Assembly (NCBI GenBank): GCA_021812345.1 | Contig: JAKANP010000001.1 | Location: forward strand, 54,979 to 118,978 | DNA length: 64,000 nt | Source of the DNA: a bacterium | GTDB lineage: Bacteria; Patescibacteriota; Minisyncoccia; UBA6257; JAGOQP01 | Reading direction: 5' to 3' | In this document: piece after piece, positions 3,235 through 64,000 of the stretch | Position numbering within the stretch: position 1 is the first letter of the stretch | How the letters are laid out: each line of letters opens with the position of its first letter | Notes under the pieces: generated by a model | Database searches by the model: none | The model's input: only the letters and a program-made list of their open reading frames with translations | Told to the model about the DNA's origin: nothing | Position numbers and translations under genes: made by a program

Positions 3235-3261
3235 AATTAAATATTTGAAAATAAATTTAAT

Positions 3262-3283
3262 ACCGGCGCTAGCCGGTTTTTTA
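3262..3283 (+). terminator. Rho-independent terminator after secY (hairpin accggcgctagccggt plus T-run)
   Basis: A perfect 6-bp GC-rich inverted repeat with a 4-nt loop is followed by TTTTTT. Confidence 0.45.
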
Positions 3284-3342
3284 TCGCAATATTAAATCAA
3301 AATTTAATGCCATCGTTATTGATTGTGTTGTTTTTAAATAAA

Positions 3343-3383
3343 TTGACGAATTTTTTGGATTTAATTTGAATTTAGTGTAAAAT
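3343..3383 (+). promoter_or_regulatory. Possible sigma70-like promoter for adk (TTGACG -35 and an extended -10 TGTAAAAT)
   Basis: TTGACG at 3343-3348 and TGnTAAAAT at 3376-3383. The second element ends about 7 nt before the adk ATG, so the mRNA could be leaderless. This rests on sequence resemblance only. Confidence 0.2.
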
Positions 3384-3389
3384 GTCTCT

Positions 3390-4103
3390 ATGTCTAATTT
3401 ACCATCAAATCAAAAAGTGGTCGTTGTCATGGGACCGCCCGGTTCGGGAAAAGGAACTCAAGCAAATCTTATAGCCGGGAAACTTAATCTTTACCATCTT
3501 GATACGGGAAAGTTTCTTGAGGAATTAGTCCATGACCCAAAACTTCAAAACAACCCGGAGGTTCAAAAGGAAAGAGAAAATTTTGACGGAGGAATTTTGG
3601 TAAGCCCAATTTTCTTTTTAAAATGGGTTACTGAAAAAATAAATGAATTATACAAAAATGGCGAAGGAATAATTTTCAGCGGATCGCCCAGGACTATGCT
3701 TGAAGGTTTTGGGGACGAGGGTCATAAGGGGCTTATGGATGTGTTGGAGCAAGATTATGGAAGAGAAAATATACTCATCTTTCTTCTTCAAATTCCTGAC
3801 GAGGAATCAATAAGAAGAAACAGTTCGAGATTGATTTGTTCGGTTTGCGGCAATGCGATGATAAGCGCTCTTAATTTGAATTTGCCTCAATGCCCGGTTT
3901 GTGGAGGAGCGTTTAGGAAAAGAACGCTGGACAAGTCGGATGTTATAAAAGTTCGTTTGGAAGAATATAGAAACAGAACATTTCCGGTTGTTGCGGAATT
4001 GGAAAAACGCGGGTTTGTGGTTAATAGAATCGACGGCACTCCGATGCCGTATAAAGTTTTTGAGAACATCACTTCAATTATCAATGATATTTTTAAAAAG
4101 TAA
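3390..4103 (+). CDS. adk: adenylate kinase with Cys4 zinc-lid
   Basis: GPPGSGKGTQ P-loop. LID with CSVCG...CPVCGG. Confidence 0.9.
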   Translation: MSNLPSNQKVVVVMGPPGSGKGTQANLIAGKLNLYHLDTGKFLEELVHDPKLQNNPEVQKERENFDGGILVSPIFFLKWVTEKINELYKNGEGIIFSGSPRTMLEGFGDEGHKGLMDVLEQDYGRENILIFLLQIPDEESIRRNSSRLICSVCGNAMISALNLNLPQCPVCGGAFRKRTLDKSDVIKVRLEEYRNRTFPVVAELEKRGFVVNRIDGTPMPYKVFENITSIINDIFKK

Positions 4104-22561: not shown

Positions 22562-22830
22562 AAATAAATACACTCTTGTGGTGTATTTTATTTTGCATGG
22601 GAAGTCCCGAAACTGCTTTCGGGACGTCAGGGATTTTAAACGACGTAGCTTGTTCCGCTCAGCAGAGCGGAACGCGAGTCGGTGCTTAGACCAATTCTAC
22701 TCGACGGAGTAGAATTGAGTCGAAGGAGATTCCCTGCCGCGCCCGTCCGAAACTTTAGTGAAGGAGGGTCCCCCAGCCGATTTTTAAGCGTAAAAATCGC
22801 GTCGGAATGAGTACATTTCCGACGTCGTCC
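22562..22830 (+). ncRNA. Candidate structured RNA of unknown class (six strong hairpins, locally GC-rich)
   Basis: Perfect stems at 22567-22587 (6 bp), 22604-22625 (9 bp), 22652-22672 (8 bp), 22693-22716 (10 bp), 22778-22799 (9 bp) and 22800-22824 (8 bp). No ORF. GC is well above the local background. Confidence 0.3.
22768..22777 (+). repeat. 10-nt direct repeat of the tRNA-Gln(UUG) 3' end (gtcccccagc)
   Basis: Identical 10-mer at 22551-22560 (tRNA 3' end) and 22768-22777. Confidence 0.5.
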
Positions 22831-22948
22831 ACTATCTCTTTATTTTGTGTACAGCAAGCAACTTGGGTCAAAAATTTAAAGAATAGTAAGTTTCTTGTAT
22901 TAATCTTCCATTTGCTGATATACTGAATAAACAATTAAAAAAATATAT

Positions 22949-38503: not shown

Positions 38504-39655
38504 ATGAGAAAAGAATTAAGAATTGGTTTTACCGGAGGCGGGACAGGAGGTCATATTTATCCTTTATTGGCAGTCGCCGACTTGGTTGGAGAAAAGCTCA
38601 ATCATTCGCAGATTGAATTTAAATTTTATTATTTCGGTTCTCCCGGACAATATGCTCAAGAATTTTTAAAGAGAAATTTTAAGATAATAAACATTATCTC
38701 TTCAAAAATCAGAAGATACGCTTCTGCGGAAAATATTTTGGATGTTATAAAATTTCCTTTTTCTTTGGCGCAAGCATTTTTTAAGATGCTTTTTATCATG
38801 CCGGACGTGATATTTTCCAAAGGAGGCACCGGCGCGGTGCCGGTTGTTATTGCCGCTTGGTTTTATAGAATTCCGGTTTTTATTCACGAATCGGATTCCA
38901 TACCCGGCCTTTCAAATAAAATATCATTTTCATTTTCGAAAGCGGTTGCTGTTTCTTTTAAAAAAACATTGGATTTTTTCTCGGGAGAAAAGGTCAATCT
39001 GGTCGGAAATCCTGTGAGAAGTTTTTTAATTGAGCCGAGTCCGGATTTGAACGGAGAAAAGGCAAAAAAAATATTCGGTTTTGATTCTCAGTTGCCGTTG
39101 ATATTGGTTTTAGGAGGTTCCCAGGGGTCTCAAAGAATCAATGAGTTTATGTTGGATAATGTAAAAAAATTTGTAGAAAAGTATCAGGTGCTTCATCAGG
39201 TCGGTTCCGAAAATTTCAACGATTTTAAAAGTGAATTGGCGGTGGCGACAGAAAGTTTCATTCCCGAAGAAAGAACAAGATATAAAATAGTTGGATTTCT
39301 AAATAATGAAATAAAAGAAGCGATGATAGCTTGTGATCTTGTTGTTTCAAGAGCTGGGAGCGGGGCAATTTTTGAAATCTCGGCTTTTAAAAAACCGTCT
39401 ATTTTAATTCCTTTGGCCGAATCGGCCGGAAATCATCAATTTTATAACGCTTACGAATATGCCCAGAACGGAGCGGCGATAGTCATTGAAGAAGATAATT
39501 TAAAATCGGATATCTTCTTTTCTCAATTGCGGTTGGTTTTGGAAAATAAAACAAAATACAATCTTATGAGTGAAGCTTCCGGTAAATTTTTTAATCCTCA
39601 ATCAGCGGAAATTATAGCTGACGAATTAATAAAGTTAGCTGAAAAAAATAATTAA
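38504..39655 (+). CDS. murG: undecaprenyldiphospho-muramoylpentapeptide beta-N-acetylglucosaminyltransferase
   Basis: GGGTGGHIYP G-loop. GT-B architecture. dcw context. Confidence 0.88.
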   Translation: MRKELRIGFTGGGTGGHIYPLLAVADLVGEKLNHSQIEFKFYYFGSPGQYAQEFLKRNFKIINIISSKIRRYASAENILDVIKFPFSLAQAFFKMLFIMPDVIFSKGGTGAVPVVIAAWFYRIPVFIHESDSIPGLSNKISFSFSKAVAVSFKKTLDFFSGEKVNLVGNPVRSFLIEPSPDLNGEKAKKIFGFDSQLPLILVLGGSQGSQRINEFMLDNVKKFVEKYQVLHQVGSENFNDFKSELAVATESFIPEERTRYKIVGFLNNEIKEAMIACDLVVSRAGSGAIFEISAFKKPSILIPLAESAGNHQFYNAYEYAQNGAAIVIEEDNLKSDIFFSQLRLVLENKTKYNLMSEASGKFFNPQSAEIIADELIKLAEKNN

Positions 39656-39740
39656 CTACGAAATACAAATTAACTACCCTTCGACTTCGCTCAGGGCGAG
39701 TTCCTTCCTTCGCTAAAGCTACGGAGGGCGCGCAAGTTTG

Positions 39741-39966
39741 TCATTCCAGCGGAGGCTGGAATCCAGGAAGCGTGGATCCTGAATCAAGTTCAGGATGACA
39801 AACTCTCTCGTCATTCCAGCGTATGCTGGAATCCAGGAAGCGTGGATCCTGAATCAAGTTCAGGATGACAAACTCTCTCGTCATTCCAGCGGAGGCTGGA
39901 ATCCAGAAAAGATGGATCCTGAAATAAATTCAGGATGACAAACCCTCTCGTCATTCCAGCGAAAGC
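39741..39966. repeat. Tandem array of a 70-bp unit (3 full copies plus a partial fourth), each unit containing two 8-bp hairpins
   Basis: Units at 39741-39810, 39811-39880 (67/70 identical), 39881-39950 (more diverged) and a partial copy from 39951. Each unit has attccagc-NNNN-gctggaat and atcctgaa-tcaagt-ttcaggat stems. There are no unique spacers and no ORF. Confidence 0.85.
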
Positions 39967-40046
39967 TACTCGTTCGAATCAGAGCGGAGGATGGATTCCA
40001 AGCCCATCCTTAATGCCATCTTGATTTGCGTAATAAATTCCAATGT

Positions 40047-40083
40047 GCGCTGTTATGCTATAGCATAACAGTCGTGTTTTTAT
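40047..40083 (+). terminator. Perfect 22-nt palindrome (ctgttatgctatagcataacag) followed by a T-run. Possible terminator for the dcw operon
   Basis: 11-bp perfect stem with no loop mismatch, then gtcgtgTTTTTaTT. Confidence 0.35.
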
Positions 40084-40097
40084 TAGAATCAAAAGTT

Positions 40098-40178
40098 GTT
40101 AAGTATCTCACGCCGCGCCCCGTAGCAAATTCACTTTGCTATTTGGGGATCGTGAGATACTTAACGGAAGTGTTTTTT
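40098..40178. repeat. Long inverted repeat with 15-bp arms (gttaagtatctcacg ... cgtgagatacttaac) enclosing a nested hairpin, followed by T6
   Basis: Arms at 40098-40112 and 40151-40165. The internal tagcaaa ttcac tttgcta hairpin lies between them. T-run at 40173-40178. Confidence 0.6.
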
Positions 40179-40224
40179 GGGGATTGTTATTTGTAATTTG
40201 TTATTTGGGATTTATACTTTAAGC

Positions 40225-40322
40225 GTGAGGGTCGCCAAGACGGGAAGGCGCAAGACCTCGCAAGGCCTTCATCGCCGGTTCAAATCCCTACCTGCCGACA
40301 GGCAGGCGGGCCCCTCACTCCA
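40225..40322 (+). ncRNA. tRNA-like cloverleaf element of uncertain identity (possible degenerate/pseudo tRNA or novel RNA)
   Basis: 5' GUGAGGG pairs with 3' CCCUCAC followed by U-CCA. U8, A14, G18G19 and A21 are in place with a GCC/GGC D-stem. A GGUUCAAAUCC T-loop-like motif is present but has no complementary stem. A 9-bp interrupted hairpin with a GACA loop precedes the acceptor 3' strand. It does not fold as a canonical tRNA. Confidence 0.2.
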
Positions 40323-40415
40323 ACAGCACTTTTAGCTTAAGGCTCGGCATAAAGAGCCTATTTTTTATAGAAAAACATCCTTTTAAAACAACTTTTTTTG
40401 TGTTAGAGTTGTTTT

Positions 40416-41861
40416 ATGACAGAATCAGTTCCAATAAGGGTAAGAATCGCTCCATCACCGACGGGATATCTTCACTTAGGCACCATTAGGGCCGCTTTGT
40501 TTAACTATCTTTTTGCCAAAAAAGAAAACGGAAAGTTTATTATAAGAATTGAAGATACGGACACTGAACGTTCCCTGCCTATTTATGAAAGAGATATTCT
40601 TGACGGTTTAAAAAATCTTGAAATAAATTGGGACGAAGGTCCGGACGTGGGAGGAGATTACGGACCGTACAGGCAAAGCGAAAGGATGGAAATTTATAAA
40701 AAATATATAAAAGAATTACTTGATTCAAAAAAAGCATATAAATGTTTTTGCTCCAAAGAAGAATTAGAAGAAGAAAGAAAAGCAATGTTATCGGCCGGAA
40801 TCTTTCCAAAATATAGTGGAAAATGCAGAAATCTGACCGAAGAAGATGTAAAAAGTAAGGAGAAAGACGGGAAAGAAAGCGTAATCAGATTAAATGTTCC
40901 GTCAAATATTGAAATAGAATTTAGTGACATTATCCGTGGAAAAATTTCCGTAAACAGTGATACTATCGGCGATATTGTTATTGCCAGAAACGAACGTTCG
41001 CCATTGTATAATTTGGCGGTTGTTATTGACGATCATTTAATGAAAATTTCTCACGTTATAAGAGGTGAGGATCATATTTCAAACACGCCAAAACAAATTT
41101 TGATTCAAAAAGCGCTCGGAATTGAAATGCCGAAATACGCTCATTTGCCTTTGGTTTTGTCTCCGGACAGAAGCAAGATGTCTAAAAGAAAAATGGAGAC
41201 CTCTTTTGATGAGTATATAAAAGACGGATATCTTCCGGAAGCAATAGTTAATTTTTTGGCATTGCTCGGATGGCACCCTGAAGACGAAAAAGAAATAATG
41301 CCGCTTGAAGAATTAATTTCCAAATTCAGTTTAAAACGAGTTCAAAAAGCCGGAGGAGTTTTTAATATGGAGAAATTGGACTGGTTTAATTCTCAATACA
41401 TAAAAATATTGCCCATAGAAAAACTTGCCCAGAGAATGTCGGCGATTGTTCCATCGAGTTGGACCCTAAATTCCGACAAATTCAAAAAAGCTCTTGAAAT
41501 AGAAAGAGAAAGAATGAAAAAACTCTCCGATTTTAACAGTTCGGCAAAATTATTTTTTGAAAATATAAATTATGATAAAGATTTGTTGGTATGGAAAAAT
41601 CTTCCGCTTGATTCCGCCAAGGACAATCTTTTGAAAGCTAAAAATTTTTTGGAGAAAATGAAAGATTCTGATTTTGATAAAAAAACTCTGGAAGAAAAGT
41701 TTATGCCGCTGGCTTCTTCGTTGGGAAGAGGGGAGTTGTTGTGGCCGTTAAGAGTATCTCTTTCGGGGCAGAAAAATTCTCCCGGACCGTTTGAAATAAT
41801 GGAAGTTTTGGGAAAAAGAGAATCTCTTGAAAGAATTCAGAAAGCAATTGACCTTGCGTAA
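40416..41861 (+). CDS. gltX: glutamyl-tRNA synthetase
   Basis: RVRIAPSPTGYLHLGTIRAALFNYLFAKK (HIGH-type), IRIEDTD, KMSKRK. Confidence 0.88.
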   Translation: MTESVPIRVRIAPSPTGYLHLGTIRAALFNYLFAKKENGKFIIRIEDTDTERSLPIYERDILDGLKNLEINWDEGPDVGGDYGPYRQSERMEIYKKYIKELLDSKKAYKCFCSKEELEEERKAMLSAGIFPKYSGKCRNLTEEDVKSKEKDGKESVIRLNVPSNIEIEFSDIIRGKISVNSDTIGDIVIARNERSPLYNLAVVIDDHLMKISHVIRGEDHISNTPKQILIQKALGIEMPKYAHLPLVLSPDRSKMSKRKMETSFDEYIKDGYLPEAIVNFLALLGWHPEDEKEIMPLEELISKFSLKRVQKAGGVFNMEKLDWFNSQYIKILPIEKLAQRMSAIVPSSWTLNSDKFKKALEIERERMKKLSDFNSSAKLFFENINYDKDLLVWKNLPLDSAKDNLLKAKNFLEKMKDSDFDKKTLEEKFMPLASSLGRGELLWPLRVSLSGQKNSPGPFEIMEVLGKRESLERIQKAIDLA

Positions 41862-60393: not shown

Positions 60394-61521
60394 TTAAAAA
60401 GCTTCTTTTAATATTCCGGCAACAATCAAAAATACCAGAATAATAATAAGAATTAATCCGAATAAGCTATTTTGATTTAAATATCCAACTGAACCTATAA
60501 CCGATGCGCCAAGTCCATAGCTATAGCTTGAGGGCACAACCGTCTGCATTCCATAATATGGAGCATAGTATTGATTTCCCCAATAAGCGGCATTTGAAAA
60601 ATTTGACGTGTTCGCATTTTGATTATTTATATTTTGATTTTGAGGATTATATTGATTTCCATTGGCATCAATATAAATAATCTTTGGAGTTTCGTATACA
60701 TATTGAATTTGAGAATTACTACCGTTGTTATTTGAGTTATCGGGAACATAATTATATGAAACAGGATTAGTGTAGTTATAAGTAGGAGTGTAAGTGAGCG
60801 AATTTCCGTAAGTGGTAAACATTAAAGTTTGGCCGTAAGAAATGTAAGAGGTCCCATCGCTGGAGCTAATCCCCGCTCTAAAATAATATGTAGTGTTAGG
60901 ATTTAAATTATTAAGTTGATAAGTGAAATATGGCGATGAATTTGAATTTCTATAATAAGAAGCCGCGGGGACTACTGCCGGAATTGTCTTGTTGATTAAA
61001 TAATTTGGGTCAGTGCCGTATTCAAACCAAGTTGATCCCTGGTAAGTTTCGGAAACCGAAGCAAATGAATTTAATGTAGCGTAATTTGAAGAAATATTTG
61101 TTGCCGCATTGGTAGTGATTGATAAATTATAAACATTATAATTTCCGTTTCCGTTGGTACTGAAACTCATTATACTCCCCTGTGTTGAACCATAAGCATT
61201 GTAAGCGTCAATTCTATAATAATAAGTAACGTTATTGTTTATTCCGGAAATCTGATAAGCGACGTTTGAATACGAATAGCTTGAGCCTATGATTTGAGAA
61301 GGAGTTGTTTGTCCTAAAGAGGTTGTCTGGCCGTATTCAAAATAATAAGTTGTCTGATAACCGTTTGGATTTACTTGACCGCTTAAAGTTGCATAGTTAT
61401 TTCCAATACTCGTTGCCGATCCGGTTGAAACATAAGGAAGATTATAAGATTGGGAAAAAACTGCCGTTGCCCCCAAGACAAGAGAAGCTATTATTAAGAT
61501 AATAAATATTGTTTTTTTCAT
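60394..61521 (-). CDS. cell-surface protein with FN3-like T/Y-rich repeats and C-terminal TM anchor
   Basis: Signal peptide. Repeated TYYFEYG / TYYYRIDAYN / TYYFRAGIS beta-sandwich-like motifs. C-terminal LFGLILIIILVFLIVAGIL anchor. Confidence 0.5.
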   Translation of the reverse strand: MKKTIFIILIIASLVLGATAVFSQSYNLPYVSTGSATSIGNNYATLSGQVNPNGYQTTYYFEYGQTTSLGQTTPSQIIGSSYSYSNVAYQISGINNNVTYYYRIDAYNAYGSTQGSIMSFSTNGNGNYNVYNLSITTNAATNISSNYATLNSFASVSETYQGSTWFEYGTDPNYLINKTIPAVVPAASYYRNSNSSPYFTYQLNNLNPNTTYYFRAGISSSDGTSYISYGQTLMFTTYGNSLTYTPTYNYTNPVSYNYVPDNSNNNGSNSQIQYVYETPKIIYIDANGNQYNPQNQNINNQNANTSNFSNAAYWGNQYYAPYYGMQTVVPSSYSYGLGASVIGSVGYLNQNSLFGLILIIILVFLIVAGILKEAF

Positions 61522-61626: not shown

Positions 61627-64000
61627 TTATCTTGGAATTATTTCACGAAGAACAGGAATAAATCCGACATTGACAGTGGTCTGAGTATCGGTAACGGTCG
61701 GAGCTCCATCACAAGAAAGGTTATATTGAGTAGTAGCAATTGGTTTCACTCTGAATGTTCCGGATTCGGTTCCTGTGGCAACCATGCTATTATCCGAAAC
61801 TTTGGTAATTGCACAATTTCTTGAAACTCCGGTTGGGTCACAAGACCAAGATAAAATGGAAGATTGTCCGGTTAAAATTGACGAAGAAGAAGCGGTGAAA
61901 GTACAGGAAGCGGGAGTCAATGACTGGCAAGTAGCGCTATAAACACTGTTGTCATTTTGGGCACATCTATAAATATCGGCGTACACTGATTTTCCAAAAT
62001 ATTGACCCCACTGGCTATCCAAAGTACTACACATTATTTCCGGTTCATTTTTTAATAATTGACCGGGCTGTGGAACTTGGACGTAATCGGTTTCTCCATT
62101 ACTTGATGTATTTCTGGAACCGGACCAACCAACTATAACAGAAGACCCCCTTGATGTTGTAGTAGCATAACAATTAGTTACATTATTCACTGACCAAGAT
62201 AATACTATCGGATATGTTGAAAATTGATAGTTATATGGAACTATAAGAGGATCTATCGATACGTCAGTCCATTTATATTTAGGTGGAGGAGATAATACTT
62301 TTATATAACTACCTCCAAAACCTGTAGAAAAGCCGTTATTTTGAGTTGTAGACCACACCGTCGCCGGATTGAGACCATCCGCTACAGCCATCCACCCATT
62401 AGGCCTATTTGTAACGCCAGTTCCATTAATGTTGAGTAAGCACGAAGTCGTGTTATTATTTTTATCACTCACTCCTATATTTAGATGACAGCCGTTAACC
62501 GAATCACCACAAGTATATGTTGGTGTGCTATTGTATCCATAACAAGTCATGTCAGCTATAGCGCCTGGCCAGTTATAACATCTATAAGGAGACGTCCCTC
62601 CGGTAATTCCTACCGAAACTTGAGTTGGAGCGCTACTTGATGGATTTGCCGTAAGATTGCAGGAAAAACCTCCCGGAGGTGGCGGAGTTGAGCTTACTAT
62701 ATCTATATCCGCATTTGCCGAATGATTTAATGTTCCGCTCACTCCTGTAACTGTGAATGTGTATCTTTCAATTACTGCAGCACTTGAGACATTTAACGTA
62801 AGATTGGAAGTTCCGCTTGTTGAAATTGTTTGAGGAGAAGGAGTTCCTGTTGTGCCGCTGTGAAGACCGGATATTGATAAAGCTACATTTCCGGTAAACC
62901 CCCCGCTTGGGGTTACTGATATTGTATATGATGCTGAACCTGGCTTTGTAGTAGAAGCATAATTCGGAGAAATAGAAATTAAAAAGTCTGGAATTCCCGG
63001 AGGATTAGTTACGTTAAGAATGGCTGTAGCATTGATACTATTATAAGTAGAATTAATTCCTGCAGTTCCTGATTTTTTTCCCAAATAGAGTCCACTTCCT
63101 TGAGATGAAGCAATTGATGAATCGGGAGCGTTAACCGCCCAAGAAGCAAATTGATTAACTTTAAAATTTCCATATCTTATATCCGTTCCATCCGGATCAT
63201 ATAATCCGTTGTATTGATATGTGCTACCAACGGTTGTTGTCGCGCTTGGAGGATCAATAACATAAGTCGGGGTATGACCTGGTGGTGGCGGAGGAGGAGA
63301 ATCACAATCGCCGGCATATGGAAATGGAGTTTTTACAGAAATAGTATTGGATGGGGAACTTTCTCCACTACTGTTCACGGAAGTCACATAATAATTATAG
63401 GTTGAATTAACATTTACATTTTGATCTATATACCAAGTATTGATTGTGTTGGCTATTTTTGATCCGTTTCTGTAAACATTATAATTTGAAGCGCCGGAAA
63501 CCGGGCTCCACCCTAAAATTGCTTGGACTGAAGCTGATGGATAGTTTTGATGACATTCACCGTTTGCAGCAAAATTCGTTGGAGATCCCGGGATACCACC
63601 TCCTATTGGTGCAAAATAGAGTTTTATTTCTTGTTCTAGCGGCGGAAGAGATGCGTTAGTTCTTACATTAGTTATCGAACCACTATTGCTACAATATTGA
63701 TATCCATTTGGAGGAACTACATTTTTACCAGTAACGGTAAATTTTGAAGGGTAATAAGAATCCCATGGTCCCCACGTAAAATCATTTGGTTTTTGAGGCG
63801 TGTTGCTTAATGAAGCTGTTGGGTAATCGGCAATGGTAGTTTGGGCGGGACCACTGGTGATTGTTACGTCAAATCTTACATTGGGATCATTAGGGCTCAT
63901 AGCCACAGCGCCCGCCAAAGGAGCGGAACAATTTGGTAAGGTGTAACCATTAAAATGGACTAAGTCGTGGAATTGACTAACGGATATTGTCTTTGTAGTT
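61627..64000 (-). CDS. very large S/T/N/G-rich surface protein with FN3-like repeats (5' end beyond window)
   Basis: The frame stays open upstream of the first start codon out to the window edge. FN3-like motif (WYIDQNVNVNSTYNYYVTSVNSSGESSP) and long low-complexity T/S/G/N tracts. Confidence 0.55.
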   Translation of the reverse strand, partial: TTKTISVSQFHDLVHFNGYTLPNCSAPLAGAVAMSPNDPNVRFDVTITSGPAQTTIADYPTASLSNTPQKPNDFTWGPWDSYYPSKFTVTGKNVVPPNGYQYCSNSGSITNVRTNASLPPLEQEIKLYFAPIGGGIPGSPTNFAANGECHQNYPSASVQAILGWSPVSGASNYNVYRNGSKIANTINTWYIDQNVNVNSTYNYYVTSVNSSGESSPSNTISVKTPFPYAGDCDSPPPPPPGHTPTYVIDPPSATTTVGSTYQYNGLYDPDGTDIRYGNFKVNQFASWAVNAPDSSIASSQGSGLYLGKKSGTAGINSTYNSINATAILNVTNPPGIPDFLISISPNYASTTKPGSASYTISVTPSGGFTGNVALSISGLHSGTTGTPSPQTISTSGTSNLTLNVSSAAVIERYTFTVTGVSGTLNHSANADIDIVSSTPPPPGGFSCNLTANPSSSAPTQVSVGITGGTSPYRCYNWPGAIADMTCYGYNSTPTYTCGDSVNGCHLNIGVSDKNNNTTSCLLNINGTGVTNRPNGWMAVADGLNPATVWSTTQNNGFSTGFGGSYIKVLSPPPKYKWTDVSIDPLIVPYNYQFSTYPIVLSWSVNNVTNCYATTTSRGSSVIVGWSGSRNTSSNGETDYVQVPQPGQLLKNEPEIMCSTLDSQWGQYFGKSVYADIYRCAQNDNSVYSATCQSLTPASCTFTASSSSILTGQSSILSWSCDPTGVSRNCAITKVSDNSMVATGTESGTFRVKPIATTQYNLSCDGAPTVTDTQTTVNVGFIPVLREIIPR

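Follow-up and report, generated by a model that had tools for sequence, protein, structure and literature searches.

A tandem array of putative Ssn-related hairpin doublets in the murG-gltX spacer of a Patescibacteria genome

The Neisseria Transformation Sequence (NTS), CGTCATTCCCGCGMAVGCGGGAATCYRG, has been described as an oriented extension of the dRS3 palindrome, and across phyla the NTS and Ssn-related motifs (SRMs) flank homologues of SsnA, a 94-aa single-domain GIY-YIG protein (Chenal et al. 2025, Nat Commun, PMC11893778). SsnA binds its motif only as single-stranded DNA (ssDNA) and in one orientation, cutting a few nucleotides upstream, and is inactive on double-stranded DNA and on RNA (PMC11893778). 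The key base in binding is the C that follows the palindrome, and the three bases that precede the palindrome are important in cutting; a palindrome changed in sequence with its structure kept is not cut by the Neisseria enzyme (PMC11893778). In N. meningitidis, SsnA activity lowers the integration of transforming DNA that bears the motif (PMC11893778). The authors likened the arrangement NTS-ssnA-NTS to an insertion sequence and to repetitive extragenic palindromes and bacterial interspersed mosaic elements (REP/BIME) with their REP-associated tyrosine transposases (RAYT), a mobile-element system being for them a hypothesis only, and Patescibacteria are not mentioned in their paper (PMC11893778). 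Here, we report the analysis of a 64,000-nucleotide stretch of a Patescibacteria genome (contig JAKANP010000001.1, hereafter the window), in which the spacer between murG and gltX carries a tandem array of a 70-bp unit, each unit holding two hairpins that we compare with the SRM family.

Neisseria also has intergenic mosaic arrays, the NIMEs, which are built from dRS3 repeats. The array described here resembles the dRS3 system in having 20-bp ATTCC-N-GGAAT palindromes in intergenic arrays that alternate with other short repeats. The strict dRS3 definition is, however, ATTCCC-N8-GGGAAT (PMC11893778), whereas the form found here is ATTCCA-N8-TGGAAT, the partner is a second, SRM-like hairpin instead of an RS element, and the taxon is unrelated. 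The REP, BIME and REPIN repeats of Enterobacteria and Pseudomonas, with their RAYT partners, are similar in their extragenic palindromes being recognised as ssDNA hairpins, inverted doublets, tandem mosaics and a partner gene flanked by its own repeats, but they have a GTAG head where the present repeats have GTCAT, their partner has the HUH/Y1 fold and not the GIY-YIG fold, and mobility has not been demonstrated for SRMs. The closest likeness is to the NTS/SRM repeats with Ssn (PMC11893778), which have the same oriented GTC...C frame, extragenic place and clustering, and a GIY-YIG gene of ~95 aa flanks such hairpins elsewhere. In contrast to that system, two SRM types alternate here on opposite strands in a strict 70-bp array, the second type falls outside the published pattern, the host is a member of the Patescibacteria, and a single site is present, with no ssn nearby (73 kb), in place of hundreds of copies.

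The open reading frame (ORF) of MurG (38504-39655, + strand), in which both Glyco_transf_28 domains were found, and that of GltX (40416-41861, + strand), a class I Glu/Gln tRNA synthetase (GluRS), are separated by 760 bp (39656-40415) in which the longest ORF is 56 aa. Long ORFs in the window are separated by a median of 25 bp, which makes this spacer unusually long and one of the few long ones; one of the other gaps above 700 bp was checked in detail (3235-3987) and is an artefact of crude ORF picking. An earlier annotation made from the letters alone (the sequence-only reading) had drawn attention to exactly this, a 760-bp spacer of exceptional length in a tightly packed genome with no ORF of 60 aa or more. 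Tandem Repeats Finder returned a repeat at 39740-39961 with period 70, 3.2 copies, 92% matches and a score of 374, which confirms the head-to-tail copy number given in that reading. The first two units are alike and the third is diverged, as had also been claimed: units 1 and 2 are identical at 68/70 positions, units 1 and 3 at 62/70 and units 2 and 3 at 60/70.

Each unit runs from hairpin 1 on the + strand through an 11-nt linker to hairpin 2 on the - strand and a 10-nt spacer, AAACTCTCTC, so that it amounts to a 60-nt inverted doublet GTCAT...ATGAC plus those 10 nt. Both of the 8-bp hairpins proposed for each unit were recovered with perfect stems, ATTCCAGC-N4-GCTGGAAT and ATCCTGAA-N5-TTCAGGAT. 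Hairpin 1 reads (C/T)GTCATTCCAGCG-loop-GCTGGAATCCAG on the + strand, copies 2 and 3 being CGTCATTCCAGCG...GCTGGAATCCAG, and hairpin 2 reads TGTCATCCTGAA-loop-TTCAGGATCCA on the - strand. Compared with shuffled sequences, the whole array folds strongly as RNA (z = -6.1); as ssDNA, one unit gives z = -6.5 and -7.0 on either strand, and the single hairpins give -7.7 and -6.4 kcal/mol with z = -3.8 and -3.4. Ten of the ten columns that vary among the three units are in loops or linkers, and the 40 positions that make up stems and frame are without variation (P = 7.6e-5), a pattern of constraint. A search of the 64 kb found neither hairpin elsewhere, and 0/100 shuffles of the window gave a match. 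A CRISPR array was considered and rejected, in line with the sequence-only reading, as the units stand head to tail with no unique spacers between repeats.

Hairpin 1 differs from the NTS consensus by one compensated stem pair (C-G to A-T) and the loop. When the published degenerate SRM pattern, HGTCWYN(0-2)YYVSBRHN(0-5)WNVSBRGN(0-2)RNCYNB, was applied, copy 2 fitted strictly and copies 1 and 3 fitted with one loop position relaxed, where they have G and the pattern has H; among the matches listed, 20 of 149 hairpin 1 copies in genomes also have G there. The GTC...palindrome...C frame is present in 6/6 hairpins, all bases reported to be critical are kept, and the GTCAT head is common to all copies here and to the 149 listed copies elsewhere. 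The hairpins are extragenic, fold as ssDNA and lie in the 20-50 nt size range of SRM hairpins. Hairpin 2 is treated as an SRM-family variant outside the authors' hand-made pattern because it has the GTC...C frame, forms doublets with canonical NTS hairpins and is positioned beside Ssn-like genes. Judged by these comparisons, the hairpins are putative members of the known SRM family and not a new kind of element, and we read the 70-bp unit as an inverted doublet of two SRMs that has been tandemly amplified about threefold, with a probability of roughly 0.78. The proposal of an array of protein-binding sites in the earlier annotation had therefore pointed the right way, in that the SRM family is bound by Ssn; binding at this locus is a prediction by analogy.

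The distribution of hairpin 1 was determined by scanning species-representative genomes and viral contigs for the exact stem with any loop, 21 bases being specified per hairpin. The stem is present in at least 120 stretches from genome contigs and in 17 from viral contigs. Among the matches listed, the hosts include Alpha-, Beta-, Gamma- and Zetaproteobacteria within the Pseudomonadota; Dehalococcoidia and other Chloroflexota, Nitrospirae, Ignavibacteriae, Aquimarina (Bacteroidota), Cloacimonadota, Planctomycetia, Verrucomicrobiia and Acidobacteria; and, within the Patescibacteria, Daviesbacteria, Saccharibacteria and Uhrbacteria. The same 149 copies share bases beyond those searched for (C at -1 in 99, A at +1 in 139 and G at +2 in 97), have mostly a GAAA loop, and are accompanied in 56 cases by an inverted partner ending in ATGAC at most 130 nt away. 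For exact hairpin 2, the matches number at least 120 stretches in metagenomes and 8 in viral contigs. Hairpin 1 occurs with a hairpin-2-like partner that has a TCAAG-type loop in other Patescibacteria and in Chloroflexota (contigs L031, L036, L065 and L069), and in L152 and L153 hairpin 2 is combined into doublets with GTCATTCCCGCGCAGGCGGGAATC, the canonical hairpin of Neisseria type. The suggestion that the unit might occur only here consequently stands for the composite 70-bp unit, which was found only in this species, and fails for its two hairpins, which are spread across Bacteria. Tight arrays of near-identical doublets with an equal period are uncommon, two looser clusters being present in 265 hairpin-bearing loci. 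Duplications bearing the hairpins were also seen at two other places: a 53-bp direct duplication with hairpin 1 on a Saccharibacteria contig (L051, 288-365), and a ~350-bp duplication with hairpin 2 and a related hairpin on a metagenome contig (L213, 279-723).

Among all ORFs of the retrieved hairpin loci, iterative searching identified 23 single-domain GIY-YIG ORFs of ~95 aa, of which 12 come from the loci with hairpin 1 and 11 from those with hairpin 2; the seed ORF matches Pfam GIY-YIG (PF01541, E = 4e-16) and nothing else. Sixteen of the 23 are at most 100 nt from a perfect GTCAT hairpin, compared to 5.6 expected under random placement in their own locus (p ~7e-6), and the hairpins are hence associated with Ssn-like genes in other genomes. 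A hairpin-gene-hairpin layout was found at L046, L089 and L131 for hairpin 1 and at L254 for exact hairpin 2; at L046 the small GIY-YIG ORF lies between two inverted copies of hairpin 1. Hairpin 2 directly flanks Ssn-like genes at L254, L198, L277 and L265, and on the Saccharibacteria contig L065 the order is hairpin-2-like, ssn-like gene, hairpin-2-like, hairpin 1. Close homologues of the L065 protein number in the thousands, some of them named as Patescibacteria, Doudnabacteria or Moranbacteria. Searches of the Ssn-like protein against solved structures and NCBIfam returned a weak match to UPF0213 protein BH0048 (1zg2) together with sub-threshold matches only, and no specific name.

The same GluRS protein is encoded on contigs of GCA_027423225.1 and of several ENA and Logan assemblies; named GluRS homologues belong to Paceibacterota, Wolfebacteria and the Patescibacteria group. 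One of these contigs (L002) carries the 760-bp spacer unchanged. On another (L001), which encodes a 100% identical GltX, the spacer measures 690 bp, exactly one 70-bp unit fewer, and is otherwise the same. In species whose GltX is 71-90% identical, the spacer upstream of gltX measures only 43-342 bp and contains neither the array nor a related hairpin, and ~35 kb of sequence from related species held no such hairpin. The array is a recent gain of this lineage, because these relatives have none, and it is either unstable or hard to assemble. Among the relatives, L006, L007 and L161 have murG followed directly by the tRNA. A pilin-like gene (N_methyl, Laminin_G_3) was observed next to gltX at L004 (73-1392) and at L008 (1713-2957), the latter having no tRNA there; because of this, the murG-gltX junction is regarded as a rearrangement hotspot in the clade.

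Several observations weigh against reading the unit as an amplified SRM doublet. Hairpin 2 does not fit the degenerate SRM pattern, failing at stem positions that require S (G or C), and one base in the loop keeps hairpin 1 copies 1 and 3 from fitting. Cutting specificity depends on the enzyme; recognition of these two stems by an Ssn is a prediction. The GIY-YIG ORFs are Ssn-like by size, single domain, Pfam family and flanking hairpins, and their assignment to Ssn is putative. No ORF of the 64 kb matched a hidden Markov model of the Ssn-like ORFs; a 9-kb extension on the left is a ribosomal protein operon without ssn, and a tblastn search for an ssn remnant matched only translated hairpins. 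No other SRM was found in the 73 kb examined, i.e. the motif is single-site here. Finally, the one-unit difference of L001 could be an assembly collapse (k = 141), units 1 and 2 differing at 2 positions.

We considered four other explanations of the array. That it is a classical REP/BIME or REPIN cluster, spread and maintained by RAYT, is suggested by the alternation of short extragenic palindromes with short linkers, by the tandem repetition and by the frequency of inverted doublets of hairpin 1 elsewhere (56/149, among the matches listed). The conserved head is nevertheless GTCAT and not GT(A/G)G, the recurrent neighbour is a GIY-YIG nuclease and not a Y1 transposase, no Y1_Tnp is among the Pfam families labelled over ~50 kb of this genome, and one cluster in 64 kb is all that was found, which makes this explanation highly improbable. 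The REP/BIME-like element of the sequence-only reading survives as a description of extragenic hairpin repeats, which is the analogy drawn by the authors of the SRM work themselves; it does not extend to a GTAG head or a Y1 transposase partner, GIY-YIG taking the place of the latter. A chance likeness to SRMs in a neutral minisatellite that arose by local duplication would agree with the restriction of the composite unit to this species and with the copy number difference between strains. Against it stand the exact 21-base matches to each hairpin in hundreds of unrelated contigs with conserved flanks, the lack of matches in 100 window shuffles and the variation that spares stems and frame, and we regard it as exceedingly improbable.

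At the RNA level, the hairpins might act as stabilisers or partial terminators in the 3' untranslated region (UTR) of murG or be processed into small RNAs. With its place after the murG stop and ahead of the first terminator-like site, the array would probably be transcribed, its RNA fold is strong, and it has a weak Rfam match to the Francisella small RNA FtrB, which contains an NTS-type hairpin. No Rfam family reaches its gathering score, however, the hairpins are without U tails, relatives do without the array, and the same oriented GTC...C frame on opposite strands is a better fit to a strand-specific DNA signal; moreover, the characterised Ssn does not bind RNA (PMC11893778). We consider an RNA-level element very unlikely as the explanation, although an RNA side effect could coexist with a DNA role, and the processed small-RNA array of the earlier annotation is not borne out, there being no Rfam family at threshold and no action of Ssn on RNA. 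The FtrB match (RF02748, Francisella sRNA B), at 39795-39888, scores 29.3 bits against a gathering score of 66 and leaves the rest of the model unaligned; it is explained by the NTS-type hairpin GUCAUUCCCGCGUAGGCGGGAAUC in the FtrB consensus, where a second hairpin follows, and the array is not a member of that family. At gathering scores Rfam found three ordinary tRNAs only in the window, and at E <= 10 the spacer gave weak spurious matches (FtrB, RAGATH-10 and miRNA families) driven by the hairpins. As a separate observation, the Francisella FtrB family may itself be built around an Ssn-related motif.

The whole 570-bp block 39656-40224 could alternatively be the scar of a larger mobile element beside tRNA-Cys, the hairpins and an insert in the T stem of that tRNA being its debris. 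Genes for tRNAs are common integration sites. The locus is rearranged among relatives, with the pilin-like gene at L004 and L008 and a direct murG-tRNA junction at L006, L007 and L161, and a decayed copy of the repeat is present in the block, as is the long hairpin. However, no integrase, ssn or other gene remnant was found in the block, it has no similarity to phage records, and it lies 5' of the tRNA while integrative elements are usually at the 3' end. We find such an origin quite unlikely, and it would in any case leave the identity of the hairpins unchanged.

If the unit is an amplified SRM doublet, the doublet would have been acquired by whatever process spreads SRMs and then amplified in tandem; slippage or unequal recombination between units could account for the amplification and for the contraction in one strain, and the amplification step itself may be neutral. 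Should the organism or an invader have a cognate Ssn, each strand of the array would offer three cleavable sites, with cuts on either strand expected in the 10-nt spacers. Such cutting would fragment single-stranded copies of the locus, e.g. DNA taken up by transformation. Apart from that, the array would be carried passively in the murG 3' UTR, ahead of the terminator at 40049-40081. Its assignment to the 3' UTR follows from this being the first terminator-like site, which probably ends the murG transcript. Activity of the array in this organism is predicted only, from the Neisseria system.

A bolder version, by analogy with REPINs, would make the 60-nt doublet plus its 10-nt spacer a non-autonomous mobile unit that is excised or copied by Ssn. 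With cutting a few nucleotides upstream of the motif, as by the Neisseria enzyme, the predicted cuts on both strands would fall inside the same spacer and release exact 70-nt units, and the one-unit difference between strains and the stem-sparing variation would be traces of recent Ssn-driven amplification. We hold this version to be unlikely. If it were true, SRM/Ssn would be a mobile-element system driven by a GIY-YIG enzyme, and one that is active in a streamlined Patescibacteria genome.

The features of the spacer are collected in Table 1.

Table 1. Features of the murG-gltX spacer, in window coordinates
Feature	Coordinates	Strand	Basis or remark
Lineage-specific stretch from the murG stop codon to the array	39656..39739	.	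GC-rich, no significant structure; absent in L004-L008, L161
Array: three full units (39740-39809, 39810-39879, 39880-39949) and 18 nt of a fourth	39740..39967	+	repeat and alignment
Hairpin 1, copy 1, TGTCATTCCAGCGGAGGCTGGAATCCAG, putative NTS/SRM type	39739..39766	+	one loop base off the published SRM pattern
Hairpin 1, copy 2, CGTCATTCCAGCGTATGCTGGAATCCAG	39809..39836	+	sole strict match to the SRM pattern in 64 kb, 0.06 expected
Hairpin 1, copy 3, CGTCATTCCAGCGGAGGCTGGAATCCAG	39879..39906	+	one loop base off the SRM pattern
Hairpin 2, copy 1, TGTCATCCTGAACTTGATTCAGGATCCA as read on the - strand, GTC-palindrome-C frame	39773..39800	-	flanks Ssn-like genes elsewhere
Hairpin 2, copy 2, same as copy 1	39843..39870	-	sequence comparison
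Hairpin 2, copy 3, loop TTTAT, stem intact	39913..39940	-	26-nt core equals hairpins in viral contigs L152, L153
Decayed repeat remnant: truncated fourth hairpin 1 GTCATTCCAGCGAAAGCT, degenerate AGCGGAGGATGGATTCCA, small GGATGG/CCATCC hairpin	39950..40020	+	
Terminator-like palindrome with T run	40049..40081	+	perfect 22-nt palindrome 40050-40071, then T run
Long hairpin, 68 nt, 15-bp perfect outer arms and inner stems	40098..40165	.	arms 40098-40112/40151-40165
Promoter-like TTGTAA-16-TATACT, ending 6 nt before the tRNA	40191..40218	+	-10 TATACT common to relative L004
Putative tRNA-Cys ortholog, 98 nt, encoded CCA	40225..40322	+	comparison with relatives
21-nt insertion CTACCTGCCGACAGGCAGGCG, 6-bp hairpin with GACA loop, interrupting the T stem in its 3' strand	40288..40308	+	versus L004, L006, L007, L161
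Terminator-like hairpin with T run after the tRNA	40340..40366	+	equivalent in relatives
Extended -10 element TGTGTTAGAGT, 6 nt from its end to the gltX ATG	40399..40409	+	kept in all relatives

The spacer is divided into ~570 bp (39656-40224) that are lineage-specific and ~190 bp at the 3' end that are conserved with relatives. The view of it as one continuous, highly structured non-coding spacer fails in this respect, the ~190 bp at the 3' end forming a module of promoter, tRNA-Cys, terminator and gltX promoter. A GC-rich leader had likewise been described before the array, and the GC content of 39676-39739 is indeed 0.58 against 0.35 for the genome; this stretch is not structured, though (fold z = +0.8), and no second copy of it was found in the window or in viral contigs, nor a match of the block in phage records. 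Both the perfect palindrome with its T run and the inverted repeat with 15-bp arms that had been noted downstream of the array are present (Table 1). The long hairpin formed by the latter is located between the murG terminator and the tRNA promoter and had no other copy in the window or in viral contigs, the block again being without a phage-record match.

Sequence comparison identifies the 98-nt feature at 40225-40322 as a disrupted tRNA-Cys ortholog: it takes the same place upstream of gltX as in L004, L007 and L161 and has the same GTGAGGG acceptor and U73. Its 7-bp acceptor stem, D arm and T loop GGTTCAAATCC are recognisable. An interruption breaks the T stem, and the anticodon arm has 2 extra nucleotides, so that its loop, CUCGCAAG, comprises 8 nt and its stem contains an A-C mismatch. 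Neither ARAGORN nor Rfam RF00005 calls it, even at E <= 10. With the insert deleted in silico, ARAGORN calls a tRNA that has an 8-nt loop containing GCA and a four-base "anticodon"; a forced cloverleaf of 40225-40322 is 12.5 kcal/mol worse than the minimum free energy fold. The 21-nt insert is the same in four assemblies of this species (including L001-L003) and is missing in the relatives compared, and a metagenome scan for CATCGYCGGTTCRAWTCC-N12-40-GGCCCCTCAC gave 0 matches to the T-stem insert elsewhere. Its stem, CCTGCC/GGCAGG, occurs mainly in one gammaproteobacterial genome, inside other hairpins, which was judged uninformative. Since standard tools miss this disrupted tRNA-Cys, the genome would score as having no tRNA-Cys here.

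In relatives, tRNA-Cys(GCA) upstream of gltX was called by ARAGORN in L004 and L007 and read by eye in L161, where the T arm is normal; in L160 the contig stops short of the tRNA. The anticodon loop was observed to be CCGCAAG, with C at position 33, in L004 (1532-1606) and L161 (~1358-1430), and to be an 8-nt loop, CCUGCAAG, in L006 (2853-2924), where ARAGORN reads a 6-nt loop and calls 'tRNA-???'; L007 (2860-2930) has the sole canonical loop of the four, CUGCAAA. The tRNA-Cys of these relatives appears to be under selection, because the anticodon stems co-vary. Downstream, within the last 17 nt ahead of gltX, an extended -10 element, TGTGTTAGAGT or TGTGTTAGAAT, ends 6 nt before the gltX start in the window and in L004, L006, L007, L160 and L161, and because of this conserved position the gltX mRNA is probably leaderless.

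Two further places in the window were recorded. Just downstream of tRNA-Gln(UUG), a relatively GC-rich region at 22585-22870, in which ~270 nt are free of ORFs, forms several perfect hairpins of 9-11 bp and has fold z values of -4.5 (+ strand) and -5.7 (- strand), with no Rfam match at E <= 1, and may be an unannotated structured RNA. At the other end, the contigs carrying the gene 60394-61521 in 3/3 assemblies shown (L157-L159) end ~350-590 bp past it, near ~61.8 kb, adjoining a 763-aa ORF at 61627-63918. Because the contigs of three assemblies end there, a variable or repetitive region is suggested at ~61.5-62 kb.

The array adds a member to a known repeat family, from a host group new to that family and with a tandem arrangement of unusual regularity, and it would extend to the Patescibacteria the SRM/Ssn system described in 2025. 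Natural competence has been shown in Saccharibacteria, a member of the Patescibacteria (PMC10187176). On that ground, ssDNA entering the cell, on which Ssn acts, would plausibly matter there. The second hairpin type, GTCATCCTGAA...TTCAGGATCC, is outside the published pattern yet flanks Ssn-like genes, and for this reason the SRM family may be broader than that pattern. With its strict tandem doublets and copy number variation at the strain level, the array would provide a compact natural case for how such repeats multiply.

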